Shown one piece after another: positions 4,022-35,440 of a stretch of 64,000 nucleotides of DNA. The position numbers were made by a program, and so were the translations under genes. The notes beneath the pieces were generated by a model. The model made no database searches. It worked only from the letters and a program-made list of their open reading frames with translations, and was not told where the DNA came from. Numbering within the stretch: position 1 is the first letter of the stretch; the number at the start of each line of letters is the position of its first letter. Source of the stretch: a virus. Taxonomy: Duplodnaviria > Heunggongvirae > Uroviricota > Caudoviricetes. Location of the stretch: positions 24,033 to 88,032 of IMG/VR virus record IMGVR_UViG_3300035208_002853; one strand, given 5' to 3'.

Positions 4022-4714
4022 TTATCCACCCTTCCATTCATAACATTCGCTATAGAGATCTCGTTTCTCATTCGAATCAAAAATCTCAACTACCCCATCT
4101 TTTATAACTGCATACCTAAATCTTCCAGAATCAAATCCTACTTTACAATACGGATCAATCATATAGAAATCTTTTATGGGACGACACCATGAAGGAGGTG
4201 TATGCCCCACTACCTGCACTATTTCAGGGTGAGGATTAACTCCTTCTCCAGGCCGGAACCACAAAATGTTATCTCCAGACCATAAGTTAACCAATGGAGT
4301 TCTATTTAGAGTTTCTTTGATAAGACCCACATCATTTTGCCTACTAAAATATACATCAGATAGTCCCGCATGAGTAATTAATACGCCATCATGTACCGCA
4401 GCCATTTTAAATTCGTTCTGGATTTTAATAATTTTTTCTTGTTCCTCATAATTTATCATATTCTGAGGCCAGATCTGTTTATTTAATATAATGGCAGCGT
4501 CATGATTCCCAATTAAAAGTTCTGCGTTATTTCTTTGTAGGATATCTATACATTCTAACGCTGAATATCCAATATCAACCAGATCTCCACAAAATACAAG
4601 TCTATCTGTATTTTTGTCATATCTAGAATGTTTTAAAACATTAGTAATAAGGTGAGGGCTTCCATGCGCGTCGGAGCAAATTATACATCTAATAGTAATC
4701 ATCCTCATATTCAT
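4022..4714 (-). CDS. calcineurin-like metallophosphoesterase (PPP-family Ser/Thr phosphatase / ApaH-like)
   Basis: Motifs CSDAHG, GDLVDIG (GDxxDRG), LIGNHD (GNHD/E). Confidence 0.7.
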   Translation of the reverse strand: MNMRMITIRCIICSDAHGSPHLITNVLKHSRYDKNTDRLVFCGDLVDIGYSALECIDILQRNNAELLIGNHDAAIILNKQIWPQNMINYEEQEKIIKIQNEFKMAAVHDGVLITHAGLSDVYFSRQNDVGLIKETLNRTPLVNLWSGDNILWFRPGEGVNPHPEIVQVVGHTPPSWCRPIKDFYMIDPYCKVGFDSGRFRYAVIKDGVVEIFDSNEKRDLYSECYEWKGG

Positions 4715-6581: not shown

Positions 6582-6802
6582 TTAGATTCCCACCACCGAC
6601 CTTCAACGCCACACGCGCCATCAAGGCGACACGAAATCCAACCACCAAGGAGAGACGACCTTTGGGTGCTGCAATAGTTATATCTTCTTTCTTCTTCAAA
6701 CCCAGTCTGTTTATTTATATTTTTCTTGTTTTGAGGAGCGCGACATTCAGCAAATTCTCCTGGATTTTTACACCATCTACATTCTTTGCAAAGTTTTATC
6801 AT
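6578..6802 (-). CDS. small Cys-rich protein (6 Cys) directly downstream of radical-SAM gene
   Basis: MIKLCKECRWCKNPGEFAECR...; likely start at the internal Met, giving a 4-nt overlap with the rSAM stop. Confidence 0.35.
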   Translation of the reverse strand: MIKLCKECRWCKNPGEFAECRAPQNKKNINKQTGFEEERRYNYCSTQRSSLLGGWISCRLDGACGVEGRWWESK

Positions 6803-7866
6803 TTCCACACCTCCGATTCCCAACAACTAAGTGCCGCTATATTCCAATCTGTAACTCCGTAAGACATCACATTACCGCCAAAGCAACCTCCATAGGAATC
6901 TCGCGGCTTGCGCTTAGTAGAAGAAGTTACTTCTTCAAAAATCTTTTGGACCTCTTCTGTCGTTAATTTTATCTCTTCCTTTTCTTCTGGGGTTATCTGT
7001 GGTTTAGGATGTTGACCGTGCTTTACTTTCTCTATGGGTGCAATAGTCGGCGTACATTCATCTATTTTGGGATACGAAACACAATTCCTACAGGACTTCG
7101 ACCAACCAGATCCGAACCTTATGTCTCTGAACTCGGTTTCCCATATATCTTTTAAAGACCTCTTAAATAAATTCCCTTGAACCGATATGCTTCCTGATGT
7201 TCTTTCGCTCAGACAAGGAATTACGTCTCCATCCACCGTAATCCCACATGAAACAATTCCTGCGGAGCATTTATGTTCATCCTGTAGATTATCTGCTAGG
7301 ATGTATTTTACGCCCTCTAATTCGCGAATTTTCTTTCTCAAGTAAGAAATCCCTTCAGAACTTAACATAAACTCCGATCCCGTAGTTAACTGAATCTGCC
7401 AAGATCTAAACGATTTAGCAATCTCGGCTAACGCATCGAATTCCCAAATGTTATGAGTTCCGAAATTTGTAACCATAACAATCTTGTTGTGTGGAATTTT
7501 CGGAAGATACATTGGGTATAAATGGTCTCTTGGGGTGTTCACAGATAACCCAATTATGGTAAACTTTTCCAGTAGTTCTTTACTATGAGCAAAAAATGTA
7601 CCATTTGTAATAATTCTTACGTCGCAGTTGTAAGACTTTAAAACATCAACTACTCTATTCAATTTATTGGACGAAAGCCCTCCGGGTTCTCCTCCACTTA
7701 GGGTGACTACATCGACTCCGTAGGAGCCAATTTCGTGCGCGATATGAATCATATGTTCCAAAGTCGGATGGTCTTCCCTCAAAACATCCTTCGAACCACA
7801 GTATTTACAACCTTTGTTACATCTAAGTGTAATTTCCCATATTATGTCCTTTAATTTAAGACTCAT
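6799..7866 (-). CDS. radical SAM / SPASM-domain enzyme
   Basis: CNKGCKYC (CX3CX2C), SGGEP (SAM-binding GGE), C-terminal CSAGIVSCGITVDGDVIPC and CRNCVSYPKIDEC auxiliary-cluster Cys motifs. Confidence 0.8.
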   Translation of the reverse strand: MSLKLKDIIWEITLRCNKGCKYCGSKDVLREDHPTLEHMIHIAHEIGSYGVDVVTLSGGEPGGLSSNKLNRVVDVLKSYNCDVRIITNGTFFAHSKELLEKFTIIGLSVNTPRDHLYPMYLPKIPHNKIVMVTNFGTHNIWEFDALAEIAKSFRSWQIQLTTGSEFMLSSEGISYLRKKIRELEGVKYILADNLQDEHKCSAGIVSCGITVDGDVIPCLSERTSGSISVQGNLFKRSLKDIWETEFRDIRFGSGWSKSCRNCVSYPKIDECTPTIAPIEKVKHGQHPKPQITPEEKEEIKLTTEEVQKIFEEVTSSTKRKPRDSYGGCFGGNVMSYGVTDWNIAALSCWESEVWK

Positions 7867-8839: not shown

Positions 8840-9853
8840 TTACACCTCATATATCGGACAAACTCTTTCGTTCGCAATCAGTACTTTTCTAAACCATTTA
8901 AACTCTTCGCCGTACCATACGTCCTGTAACAGTCCATCACATTTAAGAAGATTTTCTTCGTTTAATCTCCCTTCGCAGAAACTACAGGGCAATACGTCTC
9001 CTCTTACGTTTATATACGCACTAAACAGCGTAGACTCACACGGCTCAATACTCTGTTTCATCTGTTTCTTTATGATGTCGTATTTCGGATGTCTGTCCAA
9101 ATACCGGAGAAACCGACCAGATGAGCAACTGTCGAACCCGAACCTGATCCAGTTATCGAGGCAATAACTTACTAGCGTATTAAACCTCTCTTGGCTCATC
9201 CGGGTGTAACCTTCTCCCCGGCCTTTCTTTTTAAGGGAAAGAAATACGATGGCATTTAAATCTTTGAGTCTAGGATCTGTTTCAATATCGTGGACGGTTT
9301 CTAGACAATTCGCGTAGGTCTCCTCCGCTACCAATTGGTGGATATTAACTTGTTTTAATCCTGCGGCAACCAATTTCTCGACAGCAGAGTAGCAAACATT
9401 TTTGTCGTCATATCTTGAAACGGCTATGGCTCCACAAACCTCCGCTAATTTAAAAACCCAGGCATCGGTTAATCCCCAGCCATTTATGGTAACGTTTGGT
9501 ACTACATTATGATCTCTGCAATACCAAAATATTTCCAATAAGTCGGGATTCGCGTTCAGATCTCCAAGTCCAAAGGCAATTTGCAAAACTGAATTTGGCA
9601 ATTTGTGGAATATGTTCCTGAAAGTCTCAAGACTCATATTCTCTCCAATACCTGTATTTGATTTATAGCAGTGAGAACATGGTTTTCCATTTATCCCATG
9701 ACAGATGGTGGAGACCTCACAATCTATGAGTTCTGGCCCTATCGGTGAAAACTGAGGATCATCGTTCTTGTCTAGGCCCCATCTACTAAACTTTCCCGTA
9801 ATATCATCAAAATCGTAGTTGTATGATGGTGTACGGACGGATTTAATGGACAT
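8840..9853 (-). CDS. radical-SAM-like / SPASM-domain enzyme with non-canonical Cys spacing
   Basis: N-terminal CEVSTICHGINGKPCSHC (CX5CX7CX2C, no CX3CX2C); C-terminal Cys-rich CSSG...PCESTL...VLPCSFCEG...KCDG...RVCP resembles a SPASM/twitch domain. Confidence 0.5.
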   Translation of the reverse strand: MSIKSVRTPSYNYDFDDITGKFSRWGLDKNDDPQFSPIGPELIDCEVSTICHGINGKPCSHCYKSNTGIGENMSLETFRNIFHKLPNSVLQIAFGLGDLNANPDLLEIFWYCRDHNVVPNVTINGWGLTDAWVFKLAEVCGAIAVSRYDDKNVCYSAVEKLVAAGLKQVNIHQLVAEETYANCLETVHDIETDPRLKDLNAIVFLSLKKKGRGEGYTRMSQERFNTLVSYCLDNWIRFGFDSCSSGRFLRYLDRHPKYDIIKKQMKQSIEPCESTLFSAYINVRGDVLPCSFCEGRLNEENLLKCDGLLQDVWYGEEFKWFRKVLIANERVCPIYEV

Positions 9854-9860
9854 TCGCGAC

Positions 9861-10106
9861 CTACCTCGCTATTGTAAACTCATTGGTCAACTCAATTAAT
9901 CTTTGATCCTTTAATTCTCTGGCACGTATTTTAATATTGATTAATGTATTTATTAACCTTGACACCATTTCATGATTAATCTCATACATCTCACATCCAG
10001 TACCAAATTCCTCTGTTTCTAAATACAATGGTTCTTCCTCATCTCTAAATTTTACAACAAAACTGGAAGAACTACTATTAGATACGAATCCGTCTCTAGT
10101 CTTCAT
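9861..10106 (-). CDS. paralog family member P1 (N-terminal MKTRDGFVSNSSSSSFVV)
   Basis: Shares N-terminal RxGFVSNSSSSSF motif with 5 adjacent ORFs; 81 aa. Confidence 0.5.
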   Translation of the reverse strand: MKTRDGFVSNSSSSSFVVKFRDEEEPLYLETEEFGTGCEMYEINHEMVSRLINTLINIKIRARELKDQRLIELTNEFTIAR

Positions 10107-10480
10107 GTTTTTATATACTCCTTCAATTCCGCATACGTCTTAAATTTTTCTTTAATCTCATCCTGCGCTATGTTGTAACTTACATTTCTAGATTTGAATA
10201 TGTATTTTAAAACTTCTTCAGAGTCAAAAGCCAGAAGATTACATACGGGACACAAAGTAGATGGAACTTCTCCTTCCCATTCGTCTTTATCTTTTATTTC
10301 GTTTATTAAAACTTTAATTTCTGAGGACAAACAAAATTCATGGAATAAATGCTCGTTTTCACATCCAACCATATCAAAATCGGAGGGTCCTACCTCGAAT
10401 CCCGCTTCTTCTTCACCACATATTGCGCACACAAACGAACTTGAACTTGAGTTCGACACAAATCCCAATCTAACTATCAT
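10103..10480 (-). CDS. paralog family member P2 (MIVRLGFVSNSSSSSFV) with Zn-ribbon-like Cys pairs
   Basis: Conserved N-terminus; CAICG...CPVCN; 4-nt overlap with P1. Confidence 0.5.
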   Translation of the reverse strand: MIVRLGFVSNSSSSSFVCAICGEEEAGFEVGPSDFDMVGCENEHLFHEFCLSSEIKVLINEIKDKDEWEGEVPSTLCPVCNLLAFDSEEVLKYIFKSRNVSYNIAQDEIKEKFKTYAELKEYIKT

Positions 10481-10655
10481 AAATATTTCCCTCTTTAAAA
10501 TCTTTTATGATTTTGGCTTCAACCATTTTGTTTAACATTTCTTCCAGTTTTTCTCTTTCTTCCTCGTATACTTCTAAGGATATTTCTACTCCTTTATATT
10601 TTACTATAAAAGAGGACGAACTAGAATTACTCACAAATCCTTGTCTAACCTTCAT
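10470..10655 (-). CDS. paralog family member P3 (MKVRQGFVSNSSSSSFIV)
   Basis: Conserved N-terminus; 61 aa. Confidence 0.5.
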   Translation of the reverse strand: MKVRQGFVSNSSSSSFIVKYKGVEISLEVYEEEREKLEEMLNKMVEAKIIKDFKEGNIYDS

Positions 10656-10959
10656 TATTGCAAATCTCCTCGATAATCTCGTCTACAGTTTTACCAGACT
10701 TCTTTAGCAGGTACTCCTTTAAAGAGTTTGCGCTTGCTCGGCAGAGTGGACAAAACTTCGACGCAACTCTTTGTGGATCAGGTTTTGTTTTCTTGAAAGA
10801 GAAATGTTCTCTACAAAGTAAGTGTCCTTTTTCGCACCTTAATAGATCTCCCATCGATGGTATCTCATCCCAATCCCATCCTTCTTCCATCTTTCCGCAA
10901 AGATTGCAGATAAAAGAACAGGAAGAAGAATTACTTACGAACCCAACTCTTTCTTTCAT
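10645..10959 (-). CDS. paralog family member P4 (MKERVGFVSNSSSCSFIC), Zn-ribbon-like
   Basis: Motif is internal to the track ORF 10645..11073; start re-assigned to the Met preceding the motif; CNLCG...CPLCR. Confidence 0.45.
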   Translation of the reverse strand: MKERVGFVSNSSSCSFICNLCGKMEEGWDWDEIPSMGDLLRCEKGHLLCREHFSFKKTKPDPQRVASKFCPLCRASANSLKEYLLKKSGKTVDEIIEEICNNEG

Positions 10960-10972
10960 ATTCGCTCCGCTT

Positions 10973-11407
10973 TCACCTATTATAAAAGTCAAATCTCCAC
11001 TTAAATCTCTTGGACTCTCCGCCGTCGCGAAGGATATAATCGTAAATTTCTCCCAAGAGAGTTCCCTGCTCATCTCCGAACTGGACAGAATTTTCTCCTG
11101 GCGCGAGAGCTTTGGTCTTTTTCGGGGACCAATACATTCCTCTGGATTCTTCTAGTTCTTTTGCCTCTTGGCACATAAGAGAGATTACGTCTTCGAGAGT
11201 CTTGAGATTTATCTTCTCGTCCTTATGACTTTTCCGAAATTCTTTTCCCACAATTGGAGAATATTCTTCCTCATATTTCTTTATAAGACGTGAGTTTTCT
11301 TTTACGAACTCACAAAGATGGAGTCTCTCTTTAGTTTTATTCTCAATAATAAAACTGGTGGAGCTACTATTAGACACAAATCCAGATCTAGTAATCACGG
11401 CGATCAC
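10973..11407 (-). CDS. paralog family member P5 (MIAVITRSGFVSNSSSTSFII)
   Basis: Conserved N-terminus; 144 aa. Confidence 0.5.
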   Translation of the reverse strand: MIAVITRSGFVSNSSSTSFIIENKTKERLHLCEFVKENSRLIKKYEEEYSPIVGKEFRKSHKDEKINLKTLEDVISLMCQEAKELEESRGMYWSPKKTKALAPGENSVQFGDEQGTLLGEIYDYILRDGGESKRFKWRFDFYNR

Positions 11408-11702
11408 CTATGTATATCCTTCCGATTTCTATGGTTTTTAATTCTAAGTTTTCTAACCGAGTCAACGAAGATTCGAATTTATCATCCGATTCGCTGGTTA
11501 TTGTAATCCGGACCTCTTTTAGATTCCCTCTGGCGTCATACTCTTCTAACCCATGCTCCTCAAATCTATTTGCCACCTTTTCAATCCAATTGGTCATCTC
11601 CTCTTTGAACCTGTTTATTAAATCAAATTTATCCGTTCCCTTTCCACTGATTATAAAGGAAGAAGATGACGAATTTGATACAAATCCAGATCTAGTAATC
11701 AT
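11388..11702 (-). CDS. paralog family member P6 (MITRSGFVSNSSSSSFIIS)
   Basis: Conserved N-terminus; 104 aa. Confidence 0.5.
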   Translation of the reverse strand: MITRSGFVSNSSSSSFIISGKGTDKFDLINRFKEEMTNWIEKVANRFEEHGLEEYDARGNLKEVRITITSESDDKFESSLTRLENLELKTIEIGRIYIGDRRDY

Positions 11703-11899
11703 TTTCTATTCTCCCAACCCATCAAGAATCCAAATACAGCAACAAAAACTATTCCTAATCCGAAACTCCAAGGTCTAAGATCAAATAATCCGTTAGGAGA
11801 CGGAATTGCATCTCCTAGATAAATAACCCTTAAAATTAGGAATCCTACGACACCTATAATTAAGGCGACGACTTCGTTATTTTTCATCTTCCCTCCCAT
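11699..11899 (-). CDS. small two-TM membrane protein
   Basis: Hydrophobic segments ALIIGVVGFLIL / GIVFVAVFGFLMG. Confidence 0.35.
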   Translation of the reverse strand: MGGKMKNNEVVALIIGVVGFLILRVIYLGDAIPSPNGLFDLRPWSFGLGIVFVAVFGFLMGWENRK

Positions 11900-12348
11900 A
11901 ACATATCAATAGCAACAGCATATTTCTTTCTCATTCTGTCCGCCGTCTCTGGCGGAAGTCCTCTCATTCGGCAGTCGCTTGAATTGTGCGCCACGTCTTC
12001 CCACTTTACGTTAACCGCTATTTTACCTGCGGCGAGGACTCTCTTAAGGTAGTCCACATACGGCTCGTTTTTAATATGAGTAAGAGCTACTAACGCACTC
12101 ACTTCCTCTTCTGTCATATCTATTCTGTCTGTGATATCAGAGATGGTTATCTGCGGGCAATCTTCGAGTACATCATGAAGGACCGCAATCACTCTTTCGG
12201 GTTCGGTTTTCATTTGGAGCATTACATATAACGGATGAAGTATATAAGGAAGTCCAACTTTATCTAACTGCCCCACATGGCCCGCAACAGCGATCATAAT
12301 CGCAATATCAAGTCTTGATGTTCCTTCGACGGGTTCTATTCTCGGCAT
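11884..12348 (-). CDS. HD-domain (p)ppGpp hydrolase-like protein (SpoT/Mesh1 small alarmone hydrolase family)
   Basis: AGHVGQLDKVGLPYILHPL ... VIAVLHDVLED matches the SpoT/RelA hydrolase-domain signature. Confidence 0.65.
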   Translation of the reverse strand: MPRIEPVEGTSRLDIAIMIAVAGHVGQLDKVGLPYILHPLYVMLQMKTEPERVIAVLHDVLEDCPQITISDITDRIDMTEEEVSALVALTHIKNEPYVDYLKRVLAAGKIAVNVKWEDVAHNSSDCRMRGLPPETADRMRKKYAVAIDMLWEGR

Positions 12349-12365
12349 ACCTACACCTTGTCTCT

Positions 12366-12380
12366 ACTACTATTTAATCC
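12366..12380 (-). promoter_or_regulatory. promoter-like GGATTAAATAGTAGT (minus sense) about 20 nt upstream of ATG with AAGGTG SD
   Basis: Recurrent (A/T)TAAATAGT(A/T) motif upstream of many genes. Confidence 0.4.
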
Positions 12381-12388
12381 TGGCGGCA

Positions 12389-13144
12389 CTAATATCTCAT
12401 CACGTAAGGCAATCTTTTCTCAACAATTCCTTTTGCCGATTCTACGTCCCCTCTATAGATATGTAACGAATCGTTTTTATCTAATAATCTATATATTTTA
12501 CAGTTGTTGGGTCCATACACGTATTTATTCATCATCCAGGTAATCGCGATTAGATTAGGTTGCCACGCATTAAATAGATCCCGAGACCTCCAATCTAAAT
12601 GAAGATCCGCGAAGTTAACTTCGTTTTCCTCTCCGATCCAGCGGGACCATATGCGCTGCATGCAGGGTGAAGCGTTATTTACAACATCCGCTTCTGGCTC
12701 CCATGTAATCGCCTGAGACCTGTTAGAGGCAATCCTATTGTTTATCTGATCTTCTAGTTGGTCTCTTAATACTTTTAGTTGGTCTACGGTTTTATTTTCG
12801 CTTTTATATTGAACTATCCTTTCTATGTACAAATATGTAAACTTCTTTTCTTCGGGCCAATCGTTATATCCAGCGAGAAAATCAACATCAAATTCTCGTT
12901 TATATTGGTCAATAGATTTAAAAGAAAAATCTGGATGTAAAACTCCATTAGACATCTGATCTATAGCATTTCCCGTTAATTCTATTACTTGACAGGAGTC
13001 TTTTATATATTTAGGTTCCTCCACAGAACCGAATATAACATCCGTATTTGATTTTAAGACATTATTTATTGCGGTTAACCACGCTACATTAAAATCTCCC
13101 GATTTTACCATATACATTTTAGATAGCTTCATCCCATTCCTCAT
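12389..13144 (-). CDS. thymidylate-synthase-family protein, divergent; resembles deoxypyrimidine-nucleotide hydroxymethylases
   Basis: ITWEPEAD...SPCMQRIW (cf. ThyA AWNP.D...PPCH catalytic Cys region) and WRSRDLFNAWQPNLIAITWM (cf. QRS.D..LGxPFNIAS); size 251 aa similar to T4 dCMP hydroxymethylase. Confidence 0.55.
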   Translation of the reverse strand: MRNGMKLSKMYMVKSGDFNVAWLTAINNVLKSNTDVIFGSVEEPKYIKDSCQVIELTGNAIDQMSNGVLHPDFSFKSIDQYKREFDVDFLAGYNDWPEEKKFTYLYIERIVQYKSENKTVDQLKVLRDQLEDQINNRIASNRSQAITWEPEADVVNNASPCMQRIWSRWIGEENEVNFADLHLDWRSRDLFNAWQPNLIAITWMMNKYVYGPNNCKIYRLLDKNDSLHIYRGDVESAKGIVEKRLPYVMRY

Positions 13145-18375: not shown

Positions 18376-18912
18376 TCACCTAAAACAATTATGTTCCGCC
18401 CTTTCTTCCATCTCTTGTATATAAGAAATAGTATATTGACTCATTAACCAATCATACCTATATTTAATCTCGCGAGCATCCCACAGTGCATGATGTTCAA
18501 TTTTATCTGGCAGATTGGGTAATACAGGATTTACACATTCTGTTGCCATCTGCTTTAAATCTAAACAATACTTTGGCCATCCCACGGGCAAATCGATCAT
18601 GCGTCCGAATAATTGGCACAATACAACCCAATCATAGTCACTGTAGTACCCAATCCAACTGGGATTGCTCTTCTGACTAACAAATTCCACAATCTCTTTA
18701 GCGATAACCCTTCTTCTCTTCCCTTTACTAAAATCCAGGTGCTTTATCACATTATCATAGACCCAATCATCCGCAAGGCTTAATGCGAGTTCAATCTGAT
18801 CCACTACAGCATAATATTCTCTTCCGTCTTCCGCAACAATTCCTATACTCAAAAGCTGAATGGGATAATCGGGACCCGCTTCTATGAATTCGGTGTCTAA
18901 AAAGTATTTCAT
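18376..18912 (-). CDS. DEDDh-type 3'-5' exonuclease
   Basis: FLDTEF (Exo I DxE), YSDYDWVV (Exo II), HHALWDARE (Exo III H-x4-D). Confidence 0.6.
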   Translation of the reverse strand: MKYFLDTEFIEAGPDYPIQLLSIGIVAEDGREYYAVVDQIELALSLADDWVYDNVIKHLDFSKGKRRRVIAKEIVEFVSQKSNPSWIGYYSDYDWVVLCQLFGRMIDLPVGWPKYCLDLKQMATECVNPVLPNLPDKIEHHALWDAREIKYRYDWLMSQYTISYIQEMEERAEHNCFR

Positions 18913-23478: not shown

Positions 23479-23961
23479 TTATACTCCCTTAAGATCAAAT
23501 GTGGAAATTCTAGTCTCTCCATTGTGTTTCTCAAACACGACAAGAGCCAATGGTTGAGGCAGTCCCTGCGTCGCTCCGCTAAATTTAGGACGACCACGGA
23601 TAAACTTAATTTCTTTGGCCTTCATACAATATTCATGCCACCAATTGGTATTTGTCCTGGCGGGAATCAACATCACAATGGTTGTAGTACAATATTTCTG
23701 AGATTCTTTATAACTCTTTATTACCCAATCCTTTAGTTTTCCGTTTTTATCTCCATAAGGCGGGTTTAACCAACAAGATCCTTTCCATTCTTGTATTAGG
23801 GCGTTATCTGTCTCGGAATAAAAAAGATCACACTTCTTGTTAGACTCACTCGCGGCCAAATCCCAATTAAAGTGAAACTCCTCATCCAATTTATTAAAAA
23901 GTTCATCTGGCGTCTCCCAATCTTGTTTTACAGAATTAAATTTACTATCAAAGTTTACCAT
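23479..23961 (-). CDS. DNA N6-adenine methyltransferase (phage Dam-type)
   Basis: WETPDELF N-terminal motif and NPPY catalytic motif. Confidence 0.75.
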   Translation of the reverse strand: MVNFDSKFNSVKQDWETPDELFNKLDEEFHFNWDLAASESNKKCDLFYSETDNALIQEWKGSCWLNPPYGDKNGKLKDWVIKSYKESQKYCTTTIVMLIPARTNTNWWHEYCMKAKEIKFIRGRPKFSGATQGLPQPLALVVFEKHNGETRISTFDLKGV

Positions 23962-24720
23962 TTACAATCTCTCCATAACTTCTAAAATTCTATTGGCTAA
24001 AAATTCAATTACAGGTGGACAAACTGCGTTTCCATAGGATTTTACTCTATGTCGAGCCAACCGTAAGGGAACCCCATCGCCCATTCGTATATTTGGGATA
24101 TTCTTAAACCACCAAGACCCGCAAGCAATACTTCGGTTGCCAAACTCGGTTGATGCCTGTTTCTCGACGCTGCATATGCCTCCTTCAAAGAAAGGTCTCT
24201 GTAGTCCCTTGCTGACGGGGTAGGCAACGACAAAGATCCGATCCCTCTTGTGAGGCGCACCAAAGGCTCTCGCCGGAAGCACTTCCCATTCTGCATTATA
24301 CCCGATGGAGGCCAAGTCTGATAAGATTCTCCCGAAGATTTCCCCTTTTTCTGCGGTAAGCAGCCCTCTAACATTTTCCAGGATAAACCAGTCTGGTCTA
24401 AGACCGCAAATAACGTTAAAGGTTTGGGGCCACAAGTATCTATCGTCGCTTGATCCATTGCGTCTTCCGGCGAAAGAATAGGGTTGACACGGCATTCCTG
24501 CGCAGATAATGTTGGGTTTTTCAAGTTCATTAATATCAACTTCTTTAATATCAGTATATCTTTTGGTGTTTGGATAGTGCTTTTCTAATATAGAAATACA
24601 AAATGGATCGTTTTCTATTTGCCATATGGTTTTAAAAAGGTTAGAAGTGCTCTGAAATCCAAGTTCGAATCCACCTATACCAGAAAAGAGGGAGCCAAGG
24701 GTTAAAGTGATATTCTTCCC
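23962..24720 (-). CDS. DNA cytosine-5 methyltransferase, compact; no canonical start codon in frame
   Basis: In one frame: LFSGIGGFELGF (motif I), PCQPYSFAG (IV), ENVRGL (VI), HKRDRIFVVA (VIII), GNAVCPPVIEFLANRI (X). Frame opens at a stop at about 24832 and has no ATG/GTG/TTG before motif I; it overlaps the nrdG TAA. Confidence 0.65.
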   Translation of the reverse strand, partial: GKNITLTLGSLFSGIGGFELGFQSTSNLFKTIWQIENDPFCISILEKHYPNTKRYTDIKEVDINELEKPNIICAGMPCQPYSFAGRRNGSSDDRYLWPQTFNVICGLRPDWFILENVRGLLTAEKGEIFGRILSDLASIGYNAEWEVLPARAFGAPHKRDRIFVVAYPVSKGLQRPFFEGGICSVEKQASTEFGNRSIACGSWWFKNIPNIRMGDGVPLRLARHRVKSYGNAVCPPVIEFLANRILEVMERL

Positions 24721-25286
24721 TCCTGTTTCTTCCAGTTTAAACCGTTTCTCTCCACTAATCCTTTTATTTCGTCCAAACTTTCTAAATCTGGATAATCTGG
24801 AAAAACCGTTGTGCGGATCTGTAGTGGAATATCATACCATTTGCACAACAAAATTACATTTTCCGCATTTTCCCAAGAATCCTCAACACCAGTAAGTTTA
24901 AAATAATTCTCTTCTCCATAAGTTTTCATATCCAGGAAAACTTCATCAATTAATTTCTCCCTCATTAAAAGATCTAATTTTCCCGAATTATATCCAGATG
25001 TTTCCAACCCCACTTTGAATCCTATTAGGTGACAAAATTTAGCAATTTCTTCTACAGCCGCAGGCTGGAGCATTGCTTCTCCGCCGGAGAAAATCACCTC
25101 TGAAATCAAATAATTATCTAATATTTGTTTCGTTATATCTCTAATGTCTACGAAACTTTCCCCAGATTGTAACTCTTTGTTGTGGCAATAAAAACATTTA
25201 TAAGGACAACCTCGGAAAAATAAAATTAATGAGGAATGATTGGAATCCGAACATGAGAGTTGGGACCCTCCAAAATTAACTAGCAC
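24702..25286 (-). CDS. nrdG: anaerobic ribonucleotide reductase activating protein (radical SAM)
   Basis: GCPYKCFYCHN CX3CX2C; small activase size; adjacent to nrdD. Confidence 0.8.
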   Translation of the reverse strand: MLVNFGGSQLSCSDSNHSSLILFFRGCPYKCFYCHNKELQSGESFVDIRDITKQILDNYLISEVIFSGGEAMLQPAAVEEIAKFCHLIGFKVGLETSGYNSGKLDLLMREKLIDEVFLDMKTYGEENYFKLTGVEDSWENAENVILLCKWYDIPLQIRTTVFPDYPDLESLDEIKGLVERNGLNWKKQEGRISL

Positions 25287-25544: not shown

Positions 25545-27755
25545 TTAAATTGAATATCTCTTTCGGTCCATCAACTCTTCTTTCTTGCCTGCATTCCATC
25601 CGCTCACAGCTTGCAGGTAGCCCGTAACTCGGCTGATAAAATCTACATTTTTAGAGCCGCAGTTTGGGCAAACATGCCTTAATCCCTTGTTTGTTTTTGA
25701 GCAGTCCAAGCAAATTGTCATATCTCTAGTAACATCAAAATAGCCAATTTGAGTATTCCGAGCAGTCTTGTTTACGAGATCATAGAGCGCTTCGGGATCG
25801 GGATCTTTCTCCCCAAGGAATATATGGAAAATATTCCCACCGTCGAGGATAGGGAAAAATGTTTGTTCATAATTCATCCGCTCAACAAGAGAAACGTCGG
25901 CATTTGGCGGTAGCATTGTGCCATTCGTATAATATATTGGTAAATCGTTCATCTTGTTTATACGAGACAACGCCCCATTTACATCTCCCTGGACAATATT
26001 TTGTGTAAAAGGTCTGTATTTTTCGTTAAGAAGATCGGCCACCGCAAATCGTTGTGCCACTGATTCGGCAGGCGTTCTTGCTACCGCAATTTTGATCCCG
26101 CTCTCTTTCTCTAACTCTCTAGCATAATTTTTCATCTCCAAAAGAGCGCGAATAGCTAATCTATATGCATCCTTGCTTTCATGTAAGGCAAACCCCGTAT
26201 GATGCTTTACCATTTCATTAATTCCCACGACGCCAATCGTATAAACAAGGTCTTTTAGCAAATATGCATCTGGAAACCGTTTTCCGCTTTCGTGATCTAG
26301 TGATTTTTGGGTAAGGAATGGAAGCCGATCCGCCTGTAAAATCCTTTTCATCCAAGATTGTTTGATCTTAAAAACCTTAATAGCATCGTCCATTATCGAT
26401 TTCAAGTTCTCGAATAATAGATTGTCATCTCCATTAGATTTATAGGAAGCTCTAGGGGCGTTTACGGTAACTACCTGCCACGAACCCATTGAAAAATGTT
26501 TTCCATCAACAAAGTTTAACTTGTCTTCAAATTCGTTATCCGTTTCCTCATTATCCGAGAATTGATACGCGCAACATTGATAGCAAGAAATTCCCTTCCC
26601 CGCTCCTCGGTATTCCGGCATCTGGTTATCGAAATATGGAGTTCCAAATTTCGCTGCCAACTCTATTGATAATCTATATAAATCATCATATTCCGAGTTG
26701 TTCATAAAAAATGGTTCCATATTAATTTCGGGTTTTGGGAAATTAAACGGCTTCCCAAGATAGTCCCCTTCCAACATTACTTCCATTAAAGCCCTAAAAG
26801 TGGTTTGAGCCTCAGTCTCGAAATCTCCATAGGTCTGATTGTTCCAAATTTTTCCCTTATAAACTGGAGAAATATCGCGCCACATTTCCGGAATACCAGG
26901 AGACAGTTGTAGAGAAGAAAATACTATCTGGCCACCGCGAGCGACCTGGACCTGGGATGTCTCGTAGATTAATTCTTGCATAAGCTGTTTTATTTCTTTA
27001 TACTCTAGCCCGCGCATGTATGGAGCAATAAATGGTATAAAATTATAAAATCCTTGTCCGCCCGCGCAATTTGTTTGTCCCGCGGCAAGTATTTTTACTG
27101 CATGGAGAATAGCCACGGAAGGTTTCATTGCAGGACCAGCTACCGCGGCACGAATACCTTTTCCGTCGGGAAGAAATCCCGTCTTAAAGAAATAACGCAA
27201 ATCCCAGTCAGCGCAAAAAGGTCTTGTGCCAAAATATTCAAGGTCGTGGATGTGTAGATCTCCGCCTAAATGTTTGTCCGCTAACTGAGGCGGCATAAGC
27301 AACAAATATTGTTCCTTTGAAACCTTGTCGGCCTTCTTCTTGTGGCTCGTTTCAGGATTTCCCTGAACGTTGGCGTTCTCGTTCCGCTCAAATGAATTTT
27401 GGTCTCCCACATCGATCATGAAGGCGTCGTATACCGGCAATCCTACCCGTGTTGATCTTTTTCTGTAGGAATCATATCTCATTATGTCTTCTTTGTTTTT
27501 AGATTTTTGGCTTTTTTCAAGTAAAATTTGATTCGCAATTTCTCGGACCAACGAAGAATTTATTATTGAGTGTTTCTTGAAATTAATTCTCCTTTCTACT
27601 TCTATCGCTATTCCTTCTGCTTCTTCTCTAGAAATTCCATCAATTTCAAAGAACTCTTTAAGCGCGGCGGTTTCCTTTATAAGTTGATTAGAAATAGCGG
27701 CGCGGTCCCAAGGTCGATGTAGGCCACTAGACGTTCGTACAAAAATATTATCCAT
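25545..27755 (-). CDS. nrdD: anaerobic ribonucleoside-triphosphate reductase (class III)
   Basis: N-terminal ATP-cone-like region, C-terminal CLDCS...CPNCG Zn ribbon followed by the glycyl-radical motif SRVTGYLQ. Confidence 0.9.
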   Translation of the reverse strand: MDNIFVRTSSGLHRPWDRAAISNQLIKETAALKEFFEIDGISREEAEGIAIEVERRINFKKHSIINSSLVREIANQILLEKSQKSKNKEDIMRYDSYRKRSTRVGLPVYDAFMIDVGDQNSFERNENANVQGNPETSHKKKADKVSKEQYLLLMPPQLADKHLGGDLHIHDLEYFGTRPFCADWDLRYFFKTGFLPDGKGIRAAVAGPAMKPSVAILHAVKILAAGQTNCAGGQGFYNFIPFIAPYMRGLEYKEIKQLMQELIYETSQVQVARGGQIVFSSLQLSPGIPEMWRDISPVYKGKIWNNQTYGDFETEAQTTFRALMEVMLEGDYLGKPFNFPKPEINMEPFFMNNSEYDDLYRLSIELAAKFGTPYFDNQMPEYRGAGKGISCYQCCAYQFSDNEETDNEFEDKLNFVDGKHFSMGSWQVVTVNAPRASYKSNGDDNLLFENLKSIMDDAIKVFKIKQSWMKRILQADRLPFLTQKSLDHESGKRFPDAYLLKDLVYTIGVVGINEMVKHHTGFALHESKDAYRLAIRALLEMKNYARELEKESGIKIAVARTPAESVAQRFAVADLLNEKYRPFTQNIVQGDVNGALSRINKMNDLPIYYTNGTMLPPNADVSLVERMNYEQTFFPILDGGNIFHIFLGEKDPDPEALYDLVNKTARNTQIGYFDVTRDMTICLDCSKTNKGLRHVCPNCGSKNVDFISRVTGYLQAVSGWNAGKKEELMDRKRYSI

Positions 27756-28656: not shown

Positions 28657-29376
28657 TTAATTACTCCTCTCGTAGTCTTTAAATCTTATCTTAGCTATCC
28701 TAGACCGATCCGCAGATCGGACAACAATTCCCTCTGGTCTCCCGCCACCACCATCATCTAACGCGGCCTGCGTCCTAGAAATCTTAGTCTTGAGCCAATC
28801 ATAGGTATCTACTAATCCAGTCGGAATCAAATCTTCACCGATTCTTGGAGTCACAGGAAGTCCTAGACTTTGTAATAGAAATTCATCATAAAATTTCTGC
28901 CCTCCGTTATCTCTCCAAGATGCAATTTTTTCTACAGGCATCTCAAGAATTTCGTCTGAGTTTGCAATCATGGCAACATCAAATAGTCGAGCACCCAACA
29001 ATCCAGTTCCGGTATATTGTTTCCCATTTTTAGTTGTTTTTCCCCCGTATACTTCAAAATAGAATATAGTAACCCAAAGACGAGGGGCTAATCTCTCCGC
29101 AATTGGCTTCAAAGTCTCCACTATTCCTAATTGTGGATTCCCTATAAGATCACCTTTAGCATACAACAATTCTTCCCTACTACCAATAATGTATAATCCG
29201 TCGGGGAATATAATAATTCTTCCGTTTACCCCATCTATCTTTTCCGTGAGAATTGCTGTCGCGCCATCAAACGGAACCTGCACTTCATCAAGTAGTCTTC
29301 CACGATCCTCACCTATTTTATGATAAGTGAGGATGGAAGGATACTTGGTCATGGAATTTACTTTGGAAAGGTCCAT
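28657..29376 (-). CDS. ATP-dependent polynucleotide ligase, RNA-ligase (Rnl2)-like nucleotidyltransferase domain
   Basis: TEKIDGVNGR (motif I KxDG), EGIVVR (motif IV), KIRFKDY (motif V); 239 aa, no OB domain. Confidence 0.6.
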   Translation of the reverse strand: MDLSKVNSMTKYPSILTYHKIGEDRGRLLDEVQVPFDGATAILTEKIDGVNGRIIIFPDGLYIIGSREELLYAKGDLIGNPQLGIVETLKPIAERLAPRLWVTIFYFEVYGGKTTKNGKQYTGTGLLGARLFDVAMIANSDEILEMPVEKIASWRDNGGQKFYDEFLLQSLGLPVTPRIGEDLIPTGLVDTYDWLKTKISRTQAALDDGGGGRPEGIVVRSADRSRIAKIRFKDYERSN

Positions 29377-29918: not shown

Positions 29919-30884
29919 TCAACTCTCGTTAGGATTATAGACACAATCTATTGCATTCTTATCCGACCTAAATCTCAAGAAGCGCGGATGTCTAAAGCGC
30001 CCTGTTGGAAATCTGTCATTCGCCTTTATTTCGATAACCTTTCCCAGATACCTCTCTTTATTGTTACTGATCTCTTCCCTAAGAGCGTCGTCCATTCCCG
30101 AGCAAGTGCCAAATTCTATTAGTTTTTCGTCGTAAAACTGCCCAAATTTAATGGCCCCAATCCAACCATTATCGTATAATCTAGATGTTGATTCCTCCCC
30201 GGAAGATTTCTTTGTAATCTTGGTTGGATCTTCAAAACCCATTATGACGCAATCATGCGTGGCCTCTTTTTTAATTTTAATCCAATCCTTCGCATATGGA
30301 GATTTGGTATTTTTCAAAATTATACCCTCTCCTCCATTAGCCACGATTGTATTAAAATATTCTTCCTTGTCTTCGGTGATCGCCGGAACTATACTAAAGT
30401 GTTTACTCTCGGCGGCAGAGAAATTGTCCACCAAGACACTTCTCCTTTCTTCATATGAACGGTCTCGTAGATCTTGACCCTTGAAATATAAAATGTCGAA
30501 TACTCGGTAATCTACCCAGATATTCTCATTTTGAAGTCTTATAGCCTTTTCTGGGAGGGCTCCCATAATTTTTGACACGCGAGTACTTTGACTTTGATCT
30601 CCAACTACAATTTCGCCATCCAAAACCGTTCCTTCAAACTCTATATCCATCCCGTTACTCGTAAACAAATCTCTTAAATGCGGGACATTTTCAGTTTTTT
30701 CCACAAAAAGGTTATTTTTCACGGAAATATGTCTACTTGTGAACCTGTTTTTACCAATTCCGCAATGTAAAAGGAACCTTTCTCCGTCGAGCTTTTCCTC
30801 TCCTACAAATAAATTGGATTTTAACATCTTCTCATTAAATTTACCCCTAGCTTTTCCAGGAGTTAGTTGCTGCAATGGTTCCAT
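29919..30884 (-). CDS. ATP-dependent DNA ligase
   Basis: EEKLDGERF (motif I), EGIILK (IV), WIKIK (V), HPRFLRFRSDK (VI). Confidence 0.8.
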   Translation of the reverse strand: MEPLQQLTPGKARGKFNEKMLKSNLFVGEEKLDGERFLLHCGIGKNRFTSRHISVKNNLFVEKTENVPHLRDLFTSNGMDIEFEGTVLDGEIVVGDQSQSTRVSKIMGALPEKAIRLQNENIWVDYRVFDILYFKGQDLRDRSYEERRSVLVDNFSAAESKHFSIVPAITEDKEEYFNTIVANGGEGIILKNTKSPYAKDWIKIKKEATHDCVIMGFEDPTKITKKSSGEESTSRLYDNGWIGAIKFGQFYDEKLIEFGTCSGMDDALREEISNNKERYLGKVIEIKANDRFPTGRFRHPRFLRFRSDKNAIDCVYNPNES

Positions 30885-32499: not shown

Positions 32500-33183
32500 T
32501 TAATCCTTCCGCAGGTATTTTTTTGGAATACCCTCACCCTGGTATTGTCCGTTATAAACACTATCAGTCGGAGTTCCTTCAAAGAATATCATCTGTCCAA
32601 ATGAATCTCCCGGTTTAATTTGAAGGGGAACCTCAGAAGTTCTTACGAACACAACCCCAGATCCCTTATATCCCGCGTCCCACCATGCAGAGTGGACCGA
32701 AATACCTCTGCGCGAGAGGGAAGACTTGGGAAGGACAAGGGCGTTAATCGTGGGGACTTTTAAAGATTGTTTCCCTAAGAACAAACTCAGAGTATCCGCC
32801 ACGAGCTTTTGTTCTGGGTCACAGTCGGCACCATTAAATCGCTGTAACGGGTCATAGGTCTTCTTCGACAGATCTACCGTCTCCATCAACTTGAAAAGAA
32901 CGGAGGACTCTGGAGGTATCCAGTAATAGAGAAGATTTCCGGCGTCATTCCAAACCTGAGCTATACAGGTTTGTCTAAAAGATTTCTCATAATACCGAAC
33001 CGGCTCCACATAATCCTCTTCCTTAATCTTTTGGCCCCAAGGCTTATTCACACATCTATAAACCTTATCTAGTCTCACATCCCATCCCTGAGCTTGCATG
33101 TTCGATTCTTCCGCATTTAGAAGAAGATTATACTTTTTAATATCTTGTCCACTAAGAATCATAGCATCTCCATTTGATTCCAT
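32500..33183 (-). CDS. dCTP deaminase / dUTPase superfamily protein
   Basis: N-terminal MILSGQDI (Dcd-like) and DAGYKG motif (cf. DxGYxG). Confidence 0.55.
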   Translation of the reverse strand: MESNGDAMILSGQDIKKYNLLLNAEESNMQAQGWDVRLDKVYRCVNKPWGQKIKEEDYVEPVRYYEKSFRQTCIAQVWNDAGNLLYYWIPPESSVLFKLMETVDLSKKTYDPLQRFNGADCDPEQKLVADTLSLFLGKQSLKVPTINALVLPKSSLSRRGISVHSAWWDAGYKGSGVVFVRTSEVPLQIKPGDSFGQMIFFEGTPTDSVYNGQYQGEGIPKKYLRKD

Positions 33184-34519: not shown

Positions 34520-35440
34520 TCACTCCCACGGTAATCTCGGAGATTTCCAATTAAATCCCGCGGCCTTCTGATGTCCATTTCCCTTGTATTTCTTCGCTAG
34601 AACCGATAGGTCTATGTCATCTCTGACGGTCCTCAAGCTTACCTCCCAAGATTCTCCTTTTATATTTGCGTAATTAATAGCGATGTCGCAACCATCAAAT
34701 TCTTTGCTTCGGGTCATATAGTTAGCAATATACGGATCGCTATTAACTACGAGACAGGTATAGCCTTCCCAGTCGATTTTATAGGATCTATCTGTGAGGG
34801 TGGATTTGAAGCGGTCTTCGACGTAAGACCGGACTATTTTACCGTCACTAGATATGGATTTGACAACGGAGAACTGGTCGTTTTCATTAAATTTGTTAGT
34901 ATTAAACCAATTCGCCCAAAATATTATATCATCTTTAGGATCTCTTGATTGAGCTTTAAATCCGTACTGGAACGCCTCGATAAAGGCCCAATCAAATTCT
35001 TTGTCATCGTGCCGCCATACATCATAGCAACTCAATAATCTAATAAACATTGGGGTTTTTGATCCAAACAAATACCACCACGTCAACTCACAGGCTGCGA
35101 CTCCCGATTGCCGATACCCTTTAATCCATACTCCGTTGTGAGCAGTCTCTTTCTTCTCCATTTCGTCAATTATGCCCTTATGATGGTCTATCCAGAAGAA
35201 GTTTTGACTCGCTTTATTCTCTTTTAACCCCAAATACCTTGCGAGTTTTTCCATGTCATCAACGGACAAACTAAAATCCACCATATAAACTACATCATCG
35301 GTTTTTATCTCATCCCACGGAAATTTATCTCCATAATTAATCGGAAACATCTTCGCTTCTGGAAATTTATGTTTTACAATCGAACCACTGGCCCAACCAT
35401 CGAGGTCTTTGCCGTGGTAGAATACTTTTATGTTAGACAT
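34520..35440 (-). CDS. DHH-family phosphoesterase (NrnA/RecJ-like)
   Basis: HGKDLDGWAS (motif I), VYMVDFS (II), WIDHHKG (DHH), GNGHQKAAG (GGGH-like). Confidence 0.65.
   Translation of the reverse strand: MSNIKVFYHGKDLDGWASGSIVKHKFPEAKMFPINYGDKFPWDEIKTDDVVYMVDFSLSVDDMEKLARYLGLKENKASQNFFWIDHHKGIIDEMEKKETAHNGVWIKGYRQSGVAACELTWWYLFGSKTPMFIRLLSCYDVWRHDDKEFDWAFIEAFQYGFKAQSRDPKDDIIFWANWFNTNKFNENDQFSVVKSISSDGKIVRSYVEDRFKSTLTDRSYKIDWEGYTCLVVNSDPYIANYMTRSKEFDGCDIAINYANIKGESWEVSLRTVRDDIDLSVLAKKYKGNGHQKAAGFNWKSPRLPWE

Follow-up and report, generated by a model that had tools for sequence, protein, structure and literature searches.

Does a divergent ThyA-family gene lying next to an HD-domain gene on a viral contig signal hypermodification of the phage DNA, or do the two genes serve more familiar purposes? 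The question is raised by a stretch of 64,000 nucleotides from the IMG/VR virus record IMGVR_UViG_3300035208_002853 (positions 24,033 to 88,032, hereafter the window), in which nucleotides 11884-13144 hold exactly two open reading frames (ORFs), both on the minus strand and 40 nt apart. The first (12389..13144) encodes a protein of the ThyA superfamily with a longest ORF of 251 amino acids (aa), and the second (11884..12348) a 154-aa protein with an HD domain. A preliminary description of the sequence had compared the first protein with the T4-type hydroxymethylases and had taken the second for a hydrolase of the Mesh1/SpoT kind. Our analysis suggests a different pair of functions: the ThyA-like protein is probably a thymidylate synthase (TS) from an archaeal/Patescibacterial branch of the superfamily, predicted to convert dUMP to dTMP, and its neighbour a separate small alarmone hydrolase of the Aph1 type, a predicted (p)ppApp 3′-pyrophosphohydrolase. 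Both appear to be unremarkable representatives of known gene types.

The ThyA-like gene probably starts at the ATG at position 13132, giving a protein of 247 aa, because this codon is preceded by a GAGGA Shine-Dalgarno motif and an identical protein of 247 aa is present in the databases. Membership of the ThyA family, as proposed earlier, was confirmed: the protein scored 24.4 bits against Pfam PF00303, exceeding the gathering cut-off of 24.3 by 0.1 bit, and its PHROGs match was to 'thymidylate synthase' (1e-4). The catalytic SPCMQ motif (residues 159-163) and the R-S-x-D motif (RSRD, 186-189) are present as described; the segment reported as N-I-A does contain the expected Asn, at the same distance from D189 (eight residues) that separates D169 and N177 in E. 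coli, but actually reads N-L-I-A (197-200). The predicted protein has the ThyA alpha/beta fold, and its top structural matches, at 12-17% identity, include compact members of the fold that are not TS (MilA and dCMP hydroxylase). A phmmer search of the PDB sequences with the single protein gave no match, and a profile of its family matched canonical TS alone, at E-values of 1e-4 or weaker. In 32 family members P160-C161, R186-S187-R188-D189, H228-I229-Y230 and Y104 are invariant, and at E-values of 1e-30, 1e-10 and 1e-3 or better the family comprises 93, 522 and 1258 clusters at 50% identity, respectively, among 1.84 billion representative sequences.

To place the active site, we aligned reference enzymes from annotated phage genomes (T4 gp42, the M6-like enzyme of phage Lydia, the SPO1-like enzyme of Adastra, a 'pyrimidine hmase', Xp12 gp59 and the TS of PhiF1) with cellular and viral members of the ThyA-like family and with E. 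coli ThyA. Three positions of the E. coli enzyme have been used to assign specificity: residue 177 is Asn in enzymes acting on uracil and Asp in those acting on cytosine (PMC13326640, PMC8670742; Hardy & Nalivaika), residue 169 is Asn in 5-hydroxy-dCMP synthases (PMC13326640), and residue 143 is bulky and hydrophobic in TS, where it is said to exclude water, and acidic in hydroxymethylases (PMC13326640, PMC8670742). Asn197 of the window protein corresponds to N177 and is invariant in the family, which therefore points to uracil and not cytosine as the base, while Asp189 corresponds to D169 and therefore argues against a 5-hydroxy-dCMP synthase. The counterpart of L143 is Ala158; the residue is Ala or Ser across the subclade of the window protein, and Asp in all four hydroxymethylases compared. 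Cys161, Arg186-Ser187, His228, Tyr230 and Tyr104 (equivalent to Tyr94) are all retained.

Relative to canonical ThyA (E. coli, Lactobacillus casei, T4 Td), to which the window protein is 11-17% identical, the family carries its own substitutions at His147 (Met or Leu; Met in the window protein), Gln165 (Trp), Cys168 (Arg) and Arg126 (Asn). Apart from position 147, which is Met in the window protein and Leu or Phe in the others, the active site consists of the same residues as in the relatives from Patescibacteria and from anaerobic methanotrophic archaea (ANME), so that the phage copy has not diverged from its cellular relatives at this site.

In a bootstrapped neighbour-joining (NJ) tree the window protein was sister to a gene from Patescibacteria (L028, bootstrap 100), inside a group of Patescibacteria, ANME and virus sequences within a clade named 'WRSRD' after its motif (99-100). 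The methanogen-type TS of PhiF1 was the next outgroup (99), and all hydroxymethylases and Xp12 fell outside. Aligned with hhalign, the family profile matched PhiF1 TS over its full length (6e-13), followed by the Lydia enzyme (4.9e-4), E. coli ThyA (2.3e-3) and T4 gp42 (0.096). The likeness to T4-type hydroxymethylases was thus not borne out, since the protein groups with archaeal/Patescibacterial ThyA and not with the T4 gp42, SPO1 or M6 types, and the phylogenetic and residue tests that had been suggested for a hydroxymethylase went against one. The best-scoring curated family was methanogen-type TS (TIGR03283), at 69.9 bits; with an equivalog cut-off of 174.55 bits the window protein lies outside this family, as do eight other cellular and uncultivated members of its clade (55-92 bits). 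As all of these fall so far below the cut-off, we regard the clade as a separate sister of the methanogen type. The methanogen-type enzyme, which also occurs in viruses of methanogens, is exemplified by ORF59 of Methanobacterium virus PhiF1 and has the W-R-S-x-D motif and short C-terminus in common with the window clade; PhiF1 TS has Leu147, and differs in having Glu143 and Arg126 where the clade has Ala or Ser and Asn.

An action on cytosine nucleotides, whether as a dCMP hydroxymethylase (T4 gp42), a dCMP methylase (Xp12), a 5-hydroxy-dCMP synthase (RB69) or a CMP hydroxymethylase (MilA), is close to refuted by these residues. MilA and dCMP hydroxylase are among the structural matches, but at the low identity given above, and T4 gp42 was the weakest of the profile alignments. 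The T4 gp42 type combines Asp177 with an acidic residue at 143, and the RB69 gp48 type has D169N together with Asp177, whereas the window protein has Asn197, Ala158 and Asp189. Asp occupies the Asn197 position in T4 gp42, Xp12, the 'pyrimidine hmase' and reportedly MilA (PMC13326640). An O2-dependent flavin hydroxylase would, moreover, be unlikely in a phage that relies on the anaerobic reductase NrdD and its activase NrdG.

Asn at position 177 fits a dUMP hydroxymethylase as well as it fits a TS. In such an enzyme water would attack the exocyclic methylene, and the product, 5-hydroxymethyl-dUMP, would replace thymidylate in the DNA and perhaps be modified further. The small residue in place of Leu143, the missing C-terminal lid of canonical ThyA and the compact non-TS proteins among the structural matches are all compatible with this, and a Dcd/Dut-fold gene elsewhere in the window could feed it with dUMP. 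We nevertheless consider a dUMP hydroxymethylase very unlikely. The phage hydroxymethylases (SPO1 gp29, M6/Yuavirus, T4 gp42) do resemble the window protein in ThyA fold, catalytic Cys and phage location, and the dUMP enzymes also in Asn177. However, the dUMP enzymes are 350-380 aa long, as against 251 aa, both of those compared combine Asn177 with Asp143 where the window protein has Ala158, and the phage hydroxymethylases carry Asn at 147/165/168-type positions. They also branch elsewhere in the NJ tree, and the active site of the window protein is that of chromosomal genes of Patescibacteria and ANME, organisms which need a TS and have no known use for hydroxymethyluracil.

The genes around authentic hydroxymethylases offer a further comparison. 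These enzymes are accompanied by 5-hydroxymethyldeoxyuridine (5-hmdU) DNA kinases, a YfbR-like HD nucleotidase, a T7-type nucleotide kinase, dCMP deaminase, Tmk and an NTP pyrophosphatase, and in T4 by a beta-glucosyltransferase, whereas none of the partners searched for was recognised in the window. Using tblastn, a search of limited sensitivity and here applied to 64 of the 145 kb of the contig, queries for 5-hmdU DNA kinase, YfbR-type nucleotidase, T7-type nucleotide kinase, dCMP deaminase and Tmk gave nothing below an E-value of 0.04; the best match of T4 beta-glucosyltransferase had an E-value of 2.1, and a Pfam scan of approximately 50 window ORFs revealed no glycosyltransferase. A census covering the ORFs up to 6 kb away from the ThyA-like gene on ten more distant viral contigs showed six ORFs with matches to glycosyltransferase families and single ORFs with matches to sugar-nucleotide enzymes, which could be taken as favouring a modified base. 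Some of these contigs may be cellular, as the set includes matches to thermosome and RecA, and the glycosyltransferases may then be cell-surface genes; they are probably concentrated in one contig, L026, which may itself be cellular. The same census (L009-L026, IMG/VR, ThyA 38-43% identical) placed a family-B DNA polymerase in this 6-kb neighbourhood in 6/10 loci, and its other neighbours included GT1 and GT2 glycosyltransferases, a GDP-mannose dehydratase and a DegT aminotransferase.

A broader version of this idea, in which the ThyA-like enzyme would release a hydroxymethylated or otherwise C5-modified dUMP as a source of a thymine substitute in phage DNA while the HD hydrolase reshapes the nucleotide pool, draws on the small residue replacing Leu143, the presence of one of the two partner-subunit arginines and the lack of a C-terminal lid; it strikes us as hardly probable. 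A milder version might be considered, namely a true synthase that uses a non-folate pterin carrier, with the Patescibacteria-like sequence marking this 145-kb phage as a virus of ultra-small bacteria of the Candidate Phyla Radiation (CPR).

The assignment as TS leans on where the clade is found. In a scan of one genome per species, at least 567 stretches encoded a relative of the ThyA-like protein, and among the best 80 of these the full-length matches were nearly all from Patescibacteria or from archaea related to Methanosarcinales. The Patescibacteria carriers among these 80 were Saccharibacteria (including one with a 655-kb chromosome), Minisyncoccales, Paceibacterota and Ca. Microsyncoccus, and the archaeal carriers Methanoperedens, ANME-2c Methanogaster, ANME-1 Methanophagales and Methanospirareceae, and Argoarchaeum. 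The chromosomal proteins of Patescibacteria (Ca. Yanofskyibacterium parasiticum, Saccharibacteria, Minisyncoccales), of the ANME-1 subgroup and of ANME-2c are 42-54% identical to the window protein over its full length, of similar size (approximately 240-270 aa) and sister to it in the tree. Patescibacteria supply the closest of these cellular relatives, with 54% identity (L028; Ca. Yanofskyibacterium, P0011). Like the window protein, the cellular enzymes have the catalytic Cys, W-R-S-R-D, Asn177, a small residue at 143, Asn126/Arg127 and His-x-Tyr.

The cellular genes occupy housekeeping neighbourhoods, in contrast to the phage copy, which lies in a block of replication and nucleotide metabolism genes. 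Four Patescibacteria, including the 655-kb Saccharibacteria chromosome, have the order M50 peptidase, archaeal-type thyA, a short-chain dehydrogenase/reductase (SDR) gene, rpsL, rpsG and fusA (L038, L043, L051 and L053, at approximately 9.2-14.7 kb of the locus in the three full-length loci and at 0.2-5.8 kb in L051). In Ca. Yanofskyibacterium the thyA homologue lies near rpmA, the CTP synthase gene pyrG, rplI and genes of the prenyltransferase and amino-acid-kinase families, and in a metagenome-assembled genome (MAG) of Methanospirareceae near the genes for TiaS and lysyl-tRNA synthetase (LysRS). According to Chadwick et al. (PMC9012536), ThyA is present in ANME-2a, 2b, 2c, 2d and ANME-3 and ThyX in most ANME-1, with a small ANME-1 subgroup having ThyA in place of ThyX; this is the distribution expected of an organism's own thymidylate synthase. 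The same study proposed that the ANME-1/2c/2d ThyA cluster probably uses tetrahydromethanopterin (H4MPT).

Two observations on other relatives can be added. A further branch of approximately 320-370 aa has only the C-terminal catalytic half (WRSRD, PCLQR) in common with the family and a different N-terminal half; it has Asp at position 143 and occurs in Aminicenantes, Holophagae, Eubacteriales and similar (L094-L107), and also in viral contigs of 350-460 kb (L021, L024, L025, L027). On a related 110-kb contig (L118, 7435-8717) the start of the ThyA-like gene shares 4 nt with a DCD gene of 189 aa, a dCTP-deaminase/ThyA pair that speaks for a role of the ThyA-like enzyme in dTTP supply.

Several points count against a TS. 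The window protein has Ala158 where TS have a bulky hydrophobic residue, Leu143 and Arg126 being replaced by Ala and Asn, and its sequence ends 45-50 residues short of canonical ThyA, without the C-terminal segment that closes over the folate; a more open site (Ala143, Asn126, no C-terminal lid) could in principle let water in. Position 143 gives no independent help, since PhiF1 TS has Glu and the proteins of Methanoperedens, Nitrosotalea and Aminicenantes have Asp; as presumed archaeal TS carry acidic residues here, the rule is not transferable to the superclade in either direction, and exclusion of water by Leu143 was dropped as a test. Two dihydrofolate reductase (DHFR) queries gave no tblastn match below an E-value of 0.04 in the window, and the SDR beside thyA of Patescibacteria has FabG and glucose dehydrogenase, and not pteridine reductase (PTR1/FolM), as its best solved relatives, so that coupling to DHFR, considered as a test for TS, gives no support either way. 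The window is 64 kb out of a 145-kb contig, and the absence of partner genes refers to these 64 kb. Laso-Perez et al. (PMC9894754) described ThyX in ANME-1c/Methanospirareceae, where the ThyA-like gene may accordingly not be the only synthase, and assays of a purified enzyme have been reported neither for this clade nor for any identified archaeal ThyA (PMC9931769), which makes the label 'thymidylate synthase' for this clade one drawn from its distribution.

Other genes of the window supply a setting in which a TS would have a clear place. The product of 32500..33183 (minus strand, 227 aa), annotated earlier as a member of the dCTP-deaminase/dUTPase family, indeed has this fold: it matched Pfam DCD (1.6e-14) and dUTPase (2.8e-06) and phrog_1663, dCTP deaminase (2.5e-18), with an archaeal dUTPase (2YZJ) and dCTP deaminases as top PDB matches, and is a predicted supplier of dUMP/dUTP for the ThyA step. 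On the same strand lie a gene for NrdD (25545..27755; Pfam NRDD 5.4e-154), the anaerobic (class III) ribonucleoside-triphosphate reductase that catalyses the first step of the dNTP route, and a 194-aa radical S-adenosylmethionine (rSAM) protein (24702..25286; Pfam Radical_SAM 7e-18, Fer4_12 6.7e-09), which we assign as the NrdG-like activase of NrdD because of its size and its position beside NrdD. NrdD and NrdG reduce ribonucleoside triphosphates anaerobically. The preliminary description had counted two rSAM genes; rSAM genes are present, but we find three genes of this kind, namely that for NrdG, one with rSAM and SPASM domains, and one that matches SPASM alone.

Together, NrdD/NrdG, the Dcd/Dut-fold gene and ThyA constitute an ordinary anaerobic supply route to dTTP in this large phage of an oxygen-free habitat. 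In this route NrdD and NrdG would make dNTPs without oxygen, the Dcd/Dut-fold enzyme would turn dCTP or dUTP towards dUMP, and the ThyA-type enzyme would make dTMP for a genome whose G+C content is given as 39%. As in other ThyA enzymes, Cys161 would attack C6 of dUMP, a reduced pterin (either tetrahydrofolate or a carrier resembling methanopterin) would donate a methylene group, and this group would be reduced to methyl, the product predicted from the sequence comparisons being dTMP and not its hydroxymethyl analogue. The gene set that had been read as a sign of DNA hypermodification based on 5-hydroxymethyl-pyrimidines is thus equally that of a standard dTTP route, with one of its rSAM genes encoding NrdG. 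Given also Asn at 177, Ala instead of Asp at 143 and the lack of hydroxymethylase accessory genes in the window, hypermodification is not supported, and nothing that we found points to it.

The second ORF of the pair also belongs to a recognisable family. Its residues H24, H38-P, H58-D59, E62-D63, D118 and N122 form the pattern of RelA/SpoT hydrolases and align with the catalytic residues H19, H33, H53-D54, E57-D58, D110 and N114 of Aph1, a hydrolase encoded by a Bacteroides caccae prophage (PDB 7SMG, PMC10083569). The protein matched phrog_990 (7e-35) and TIGR00691, the latter in the N-terminal hydrolase region of RelA/SpoT; against Pfam HD_4 it scored 13.6 bits, with a cut-off of 27.2. Aph1 was its best solved relative (E-value 2.7e-16, residues 11-144), whereas the hydrolase domains of Rel/SpoT matched at 6e-08 or weaker. 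Both proteins are single HD domains of approximately 150 aa and both are phage-borne. More than 1000 homologues of 140-155 aa were found, many of them in Pseudomonas, Rhizobium and other bacteria, which agrees with the published distribution.

Ahmad et al. (PMC10083569) defined a six-residue Aph signature (D24, R96, D116, R119, K133, Y134) and showed that Aph1 itself does not hydrolyse (p)ppGpp, and that the changes D24R and R119A allow it to cut ppGpp. Five of the six residues are conserved in the window protein (D24/R96/R119/K133/Y134 of Aph1 as D29/R103/R127/K141/Y143), including D24 and R119, which set the adenine specificity; D29, R127, K142 and Y143 are invariant in 28 homologues. The guanine-contacting Arg-Arg-Ser that follows the G-Q motif in Rel (R43, R44 and S45 of TtRel) was not found, the window protein having D29-K30-V31 and Aph1 D24-K25-A26 at this place. 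With Aph1 as the best solved relative and both specificity residues among the five kept, the HD protein is likely an Aph-type (p)ppApp hydrolase. The alarmone reading made earlier therefore holds for the RelA/SpoT type of hydrolase, but the specificity residues are those of (p)ppApp hydrolases and not those expected of a (p)ppGpp hydrolase of the Mesh1/SpoT kind.

A Mesh1/SpoT-like (p)ppGpp hydrolase, with which the phage would switch off the stringent response of its host, is unlikely, although it has its own points in favour. The HD, ED and D..N motifs are those of RelA/SpoT hydrolase domains, relatives are annotated as '(p)ppGpp synthase/HD superfamily hydrolase' in the source databases, two tested Aph1 homologues had modest ppGpp hydrolase activity (PMC10083569), and D116 of the signature is changed. 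Against it stand the much closer match to Aph1, the replacement of the guanine-stacking Arg of Rel by Asp29 together with the presence of Arg127, both invariant among the homologues, and the Pfam HD_4 score below its cut-off. A (p)ppGpp substrate is therefore possible but less likely than (p)ppApp.

The Aph-type assignment has weaknesses of its own: identity to Aph1 is only 33% over 134 columns, D116 of the signature is Ser124 in the window protein, with Asp125 adjacent, and no RelA_SpoT or MuF domain or (p)ppApp synthetase was found among the window ORFs scanned, whereas aph1 serves as an immunity gene and lies directly downstream of the gene for a (p)ppApp synthetase toxin fused to MuF. There are precedents for small alarmone hydrolases on phages: phage Adele carries one, Aph1 is prophage-borne (PMC10083569), and PaSpo of Salmonella phage SSU5 neutralises toxic small alarmone synthetases. 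PaSpo, likened here by its description, is a stand-alone RelA/SpoT-type hydrolase of a phage like the window protein, but its neutralising action is described as broad, in contrast to the window protein with its Aph-specific residues. The window HD protein would cleave the 3′-pyrophosphate off (p)ppApp, perhaps also off related pyrophosphorylated nucleotides, and would most likely neutralise a (p)ppApp-synthesising toxin, be it a host defence, the toxin of a competitor or one of the phage's own.

Since the two genes lie side by side, a shared function was considered. The HD gene is flanked by the ThyA-like gene and by a 66-aa ORF with hydrophobic stretches, and its position after the ThyA-like gene is confined to four contigs of a single phage lineage (ThyA identity 75-100%), in one of which an 89-codon gene intervenes. 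No HD gene was found beside the ThyA-like gene in 18 other viral loci, nor in the 80 cellular loci examined. A functional link was rejected on this limited occurrence, and the best explanation for the adjacency is common descent of a tightly packed early region, not a common pathway.

One such link would make the HD protein a dTTPase/dTMPase or a dUTP/dCTP pyrophosphatase coupled to the ThyA-like enzyme, like the HD nucleotidase of M6-like phages. The 40-nt spacing on one strand is suggestive of this, and precedents exist in Pseudomonas phage Lydia, where a YfbR-like HD 5′-deoxynucleotidase directly follows the dUMP hydroxymethyltransferase, and in a SPO1-like phage with a 'phosphatase' two genes downstream. 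We give it very little credence, because the window HD protein has no similarity to the HD/phosphatase proteins encoded near these real dUMP hydroxymethylases (E-values 1.7 and 18), belongs to a different HD subfamily, and adjoins ThyA only within the one lineage.

The window as a whole is a block of replication and nucleotide-metabolism genes with a G+C content of 37-44%, nearly all of them on the minus strand. Beyond NrdD and the NrdG-like activase it encodes an ATP-dependent DNA ligase, two RNA-ligase-family proteins, an SNF2 helicase, a PrimPol-helicase, a Dam methylase, a truncated C5-cytosine methylase, TnpB, an SPFH protein and an HslV-like peptidase. The TnpB gene (IS605 OrfB/Cas12f-like TNB; 47298-48455, plus strand) adjoins the PrimPol-helicase gene and sits in a short plus-strand island, the rest of the genome being on the minus strand. 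No tRNA genes were found in the window, and a scan for promoters and terminators performed no better than on shuffled sequences. A megablast search with 12 kb around the gene pair gave no match among 50,697 records of deposited phages; the ThyA-like protein itself has identical copies on two contigs, one of 145,414 bp from a MAG that is filed under 'Proteobacteria' (NCBI MAG protein M0R80_03685) and the other a viral contig of IMG/VR.

The Dam-type N6-adenine methylase gene (23479-23961, minus strand) and a 177-aa C5-cytosine methylase ORF (23962-24495, minus strand) are directly consecutive. The latter begins at motif IV (PCQ) and lacks the S-adenosylmethionine-binding motif I, and is thus truncated or part of a split enzyme. 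The argument that a phage-encoded C5-cytosine methylase implies unmodified cytosine is weakened by this structure.

The rSAM/SPASM gene (6799-7866, minus strand; matches to Radical_SAM and SPASM) and the SPASM-only gene (8840-9853, minus strand) are not NrdG-like, are kept in four related contigs (L001, L006-L008) and have no visible link to nucleotides or nucleotide modification. They adjoin six small paralogous genes in tandem (window 9800-11702, minus strand), which are placed between this gene pair and the HD gene with its 66-aa ORF. Each paralogue starts with M-x(2-6)-GFVSNSSS[SCT]SF[IV], followed by variable sequence, the motif lying once per gene on the minus strand at 10059-10091, 10433-10465, 10608-10640, 10912-10944, 11351-11383 and 11655-11687, and some have CxxC pairs. 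Pfam gave no annotation for them in a related contig, and no PDB sequence matched; candidate readings are a set of peptide substrates for the SPASM enzymes, or a multi-copy phage family. Six genes form a possible nucleic-acid repair set (2108-2710, 4022-4714, 18376-18912, 28657-29376, 29919-30884 and 34520-35440), comprising the two RNA-ligase-family proteins, the ATP-dependent DNA ligase, a metallophosphoesterase, an Rv2179c-like 3′-5′ exoribonuclease and a protein whose DHHA1-domain match is weak and falls below the Pfam cut-off. This set might counter host nucleases that attack tRNA or other RNA.

The co-occurrence of a divergent ThyA, a Dcd-family gene and rSAM genes in a phage is no evidence of DNA hypermodification. 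The significance of the ThyA-like gene is modest, in that it extends the range of the poorly studied archaeal/Patescibacterial ThyA branch to large phages from anoxic habitats, and the phage copy may be easier to express for a first biochemical study of the clade. Since its sister genes belong to Patescibacteria that live as parasites of methanogens, genes may have moved among archaea, the bacteria parasitising them and phages, and the kinship may also be a clue to the host. The Aph-type gene adds an 'orphan' (p)ppApp hydrolase to those carried by phages, and fits the idea that toxins which make (p)ppApp matter in the conflict between phages and their hosts.

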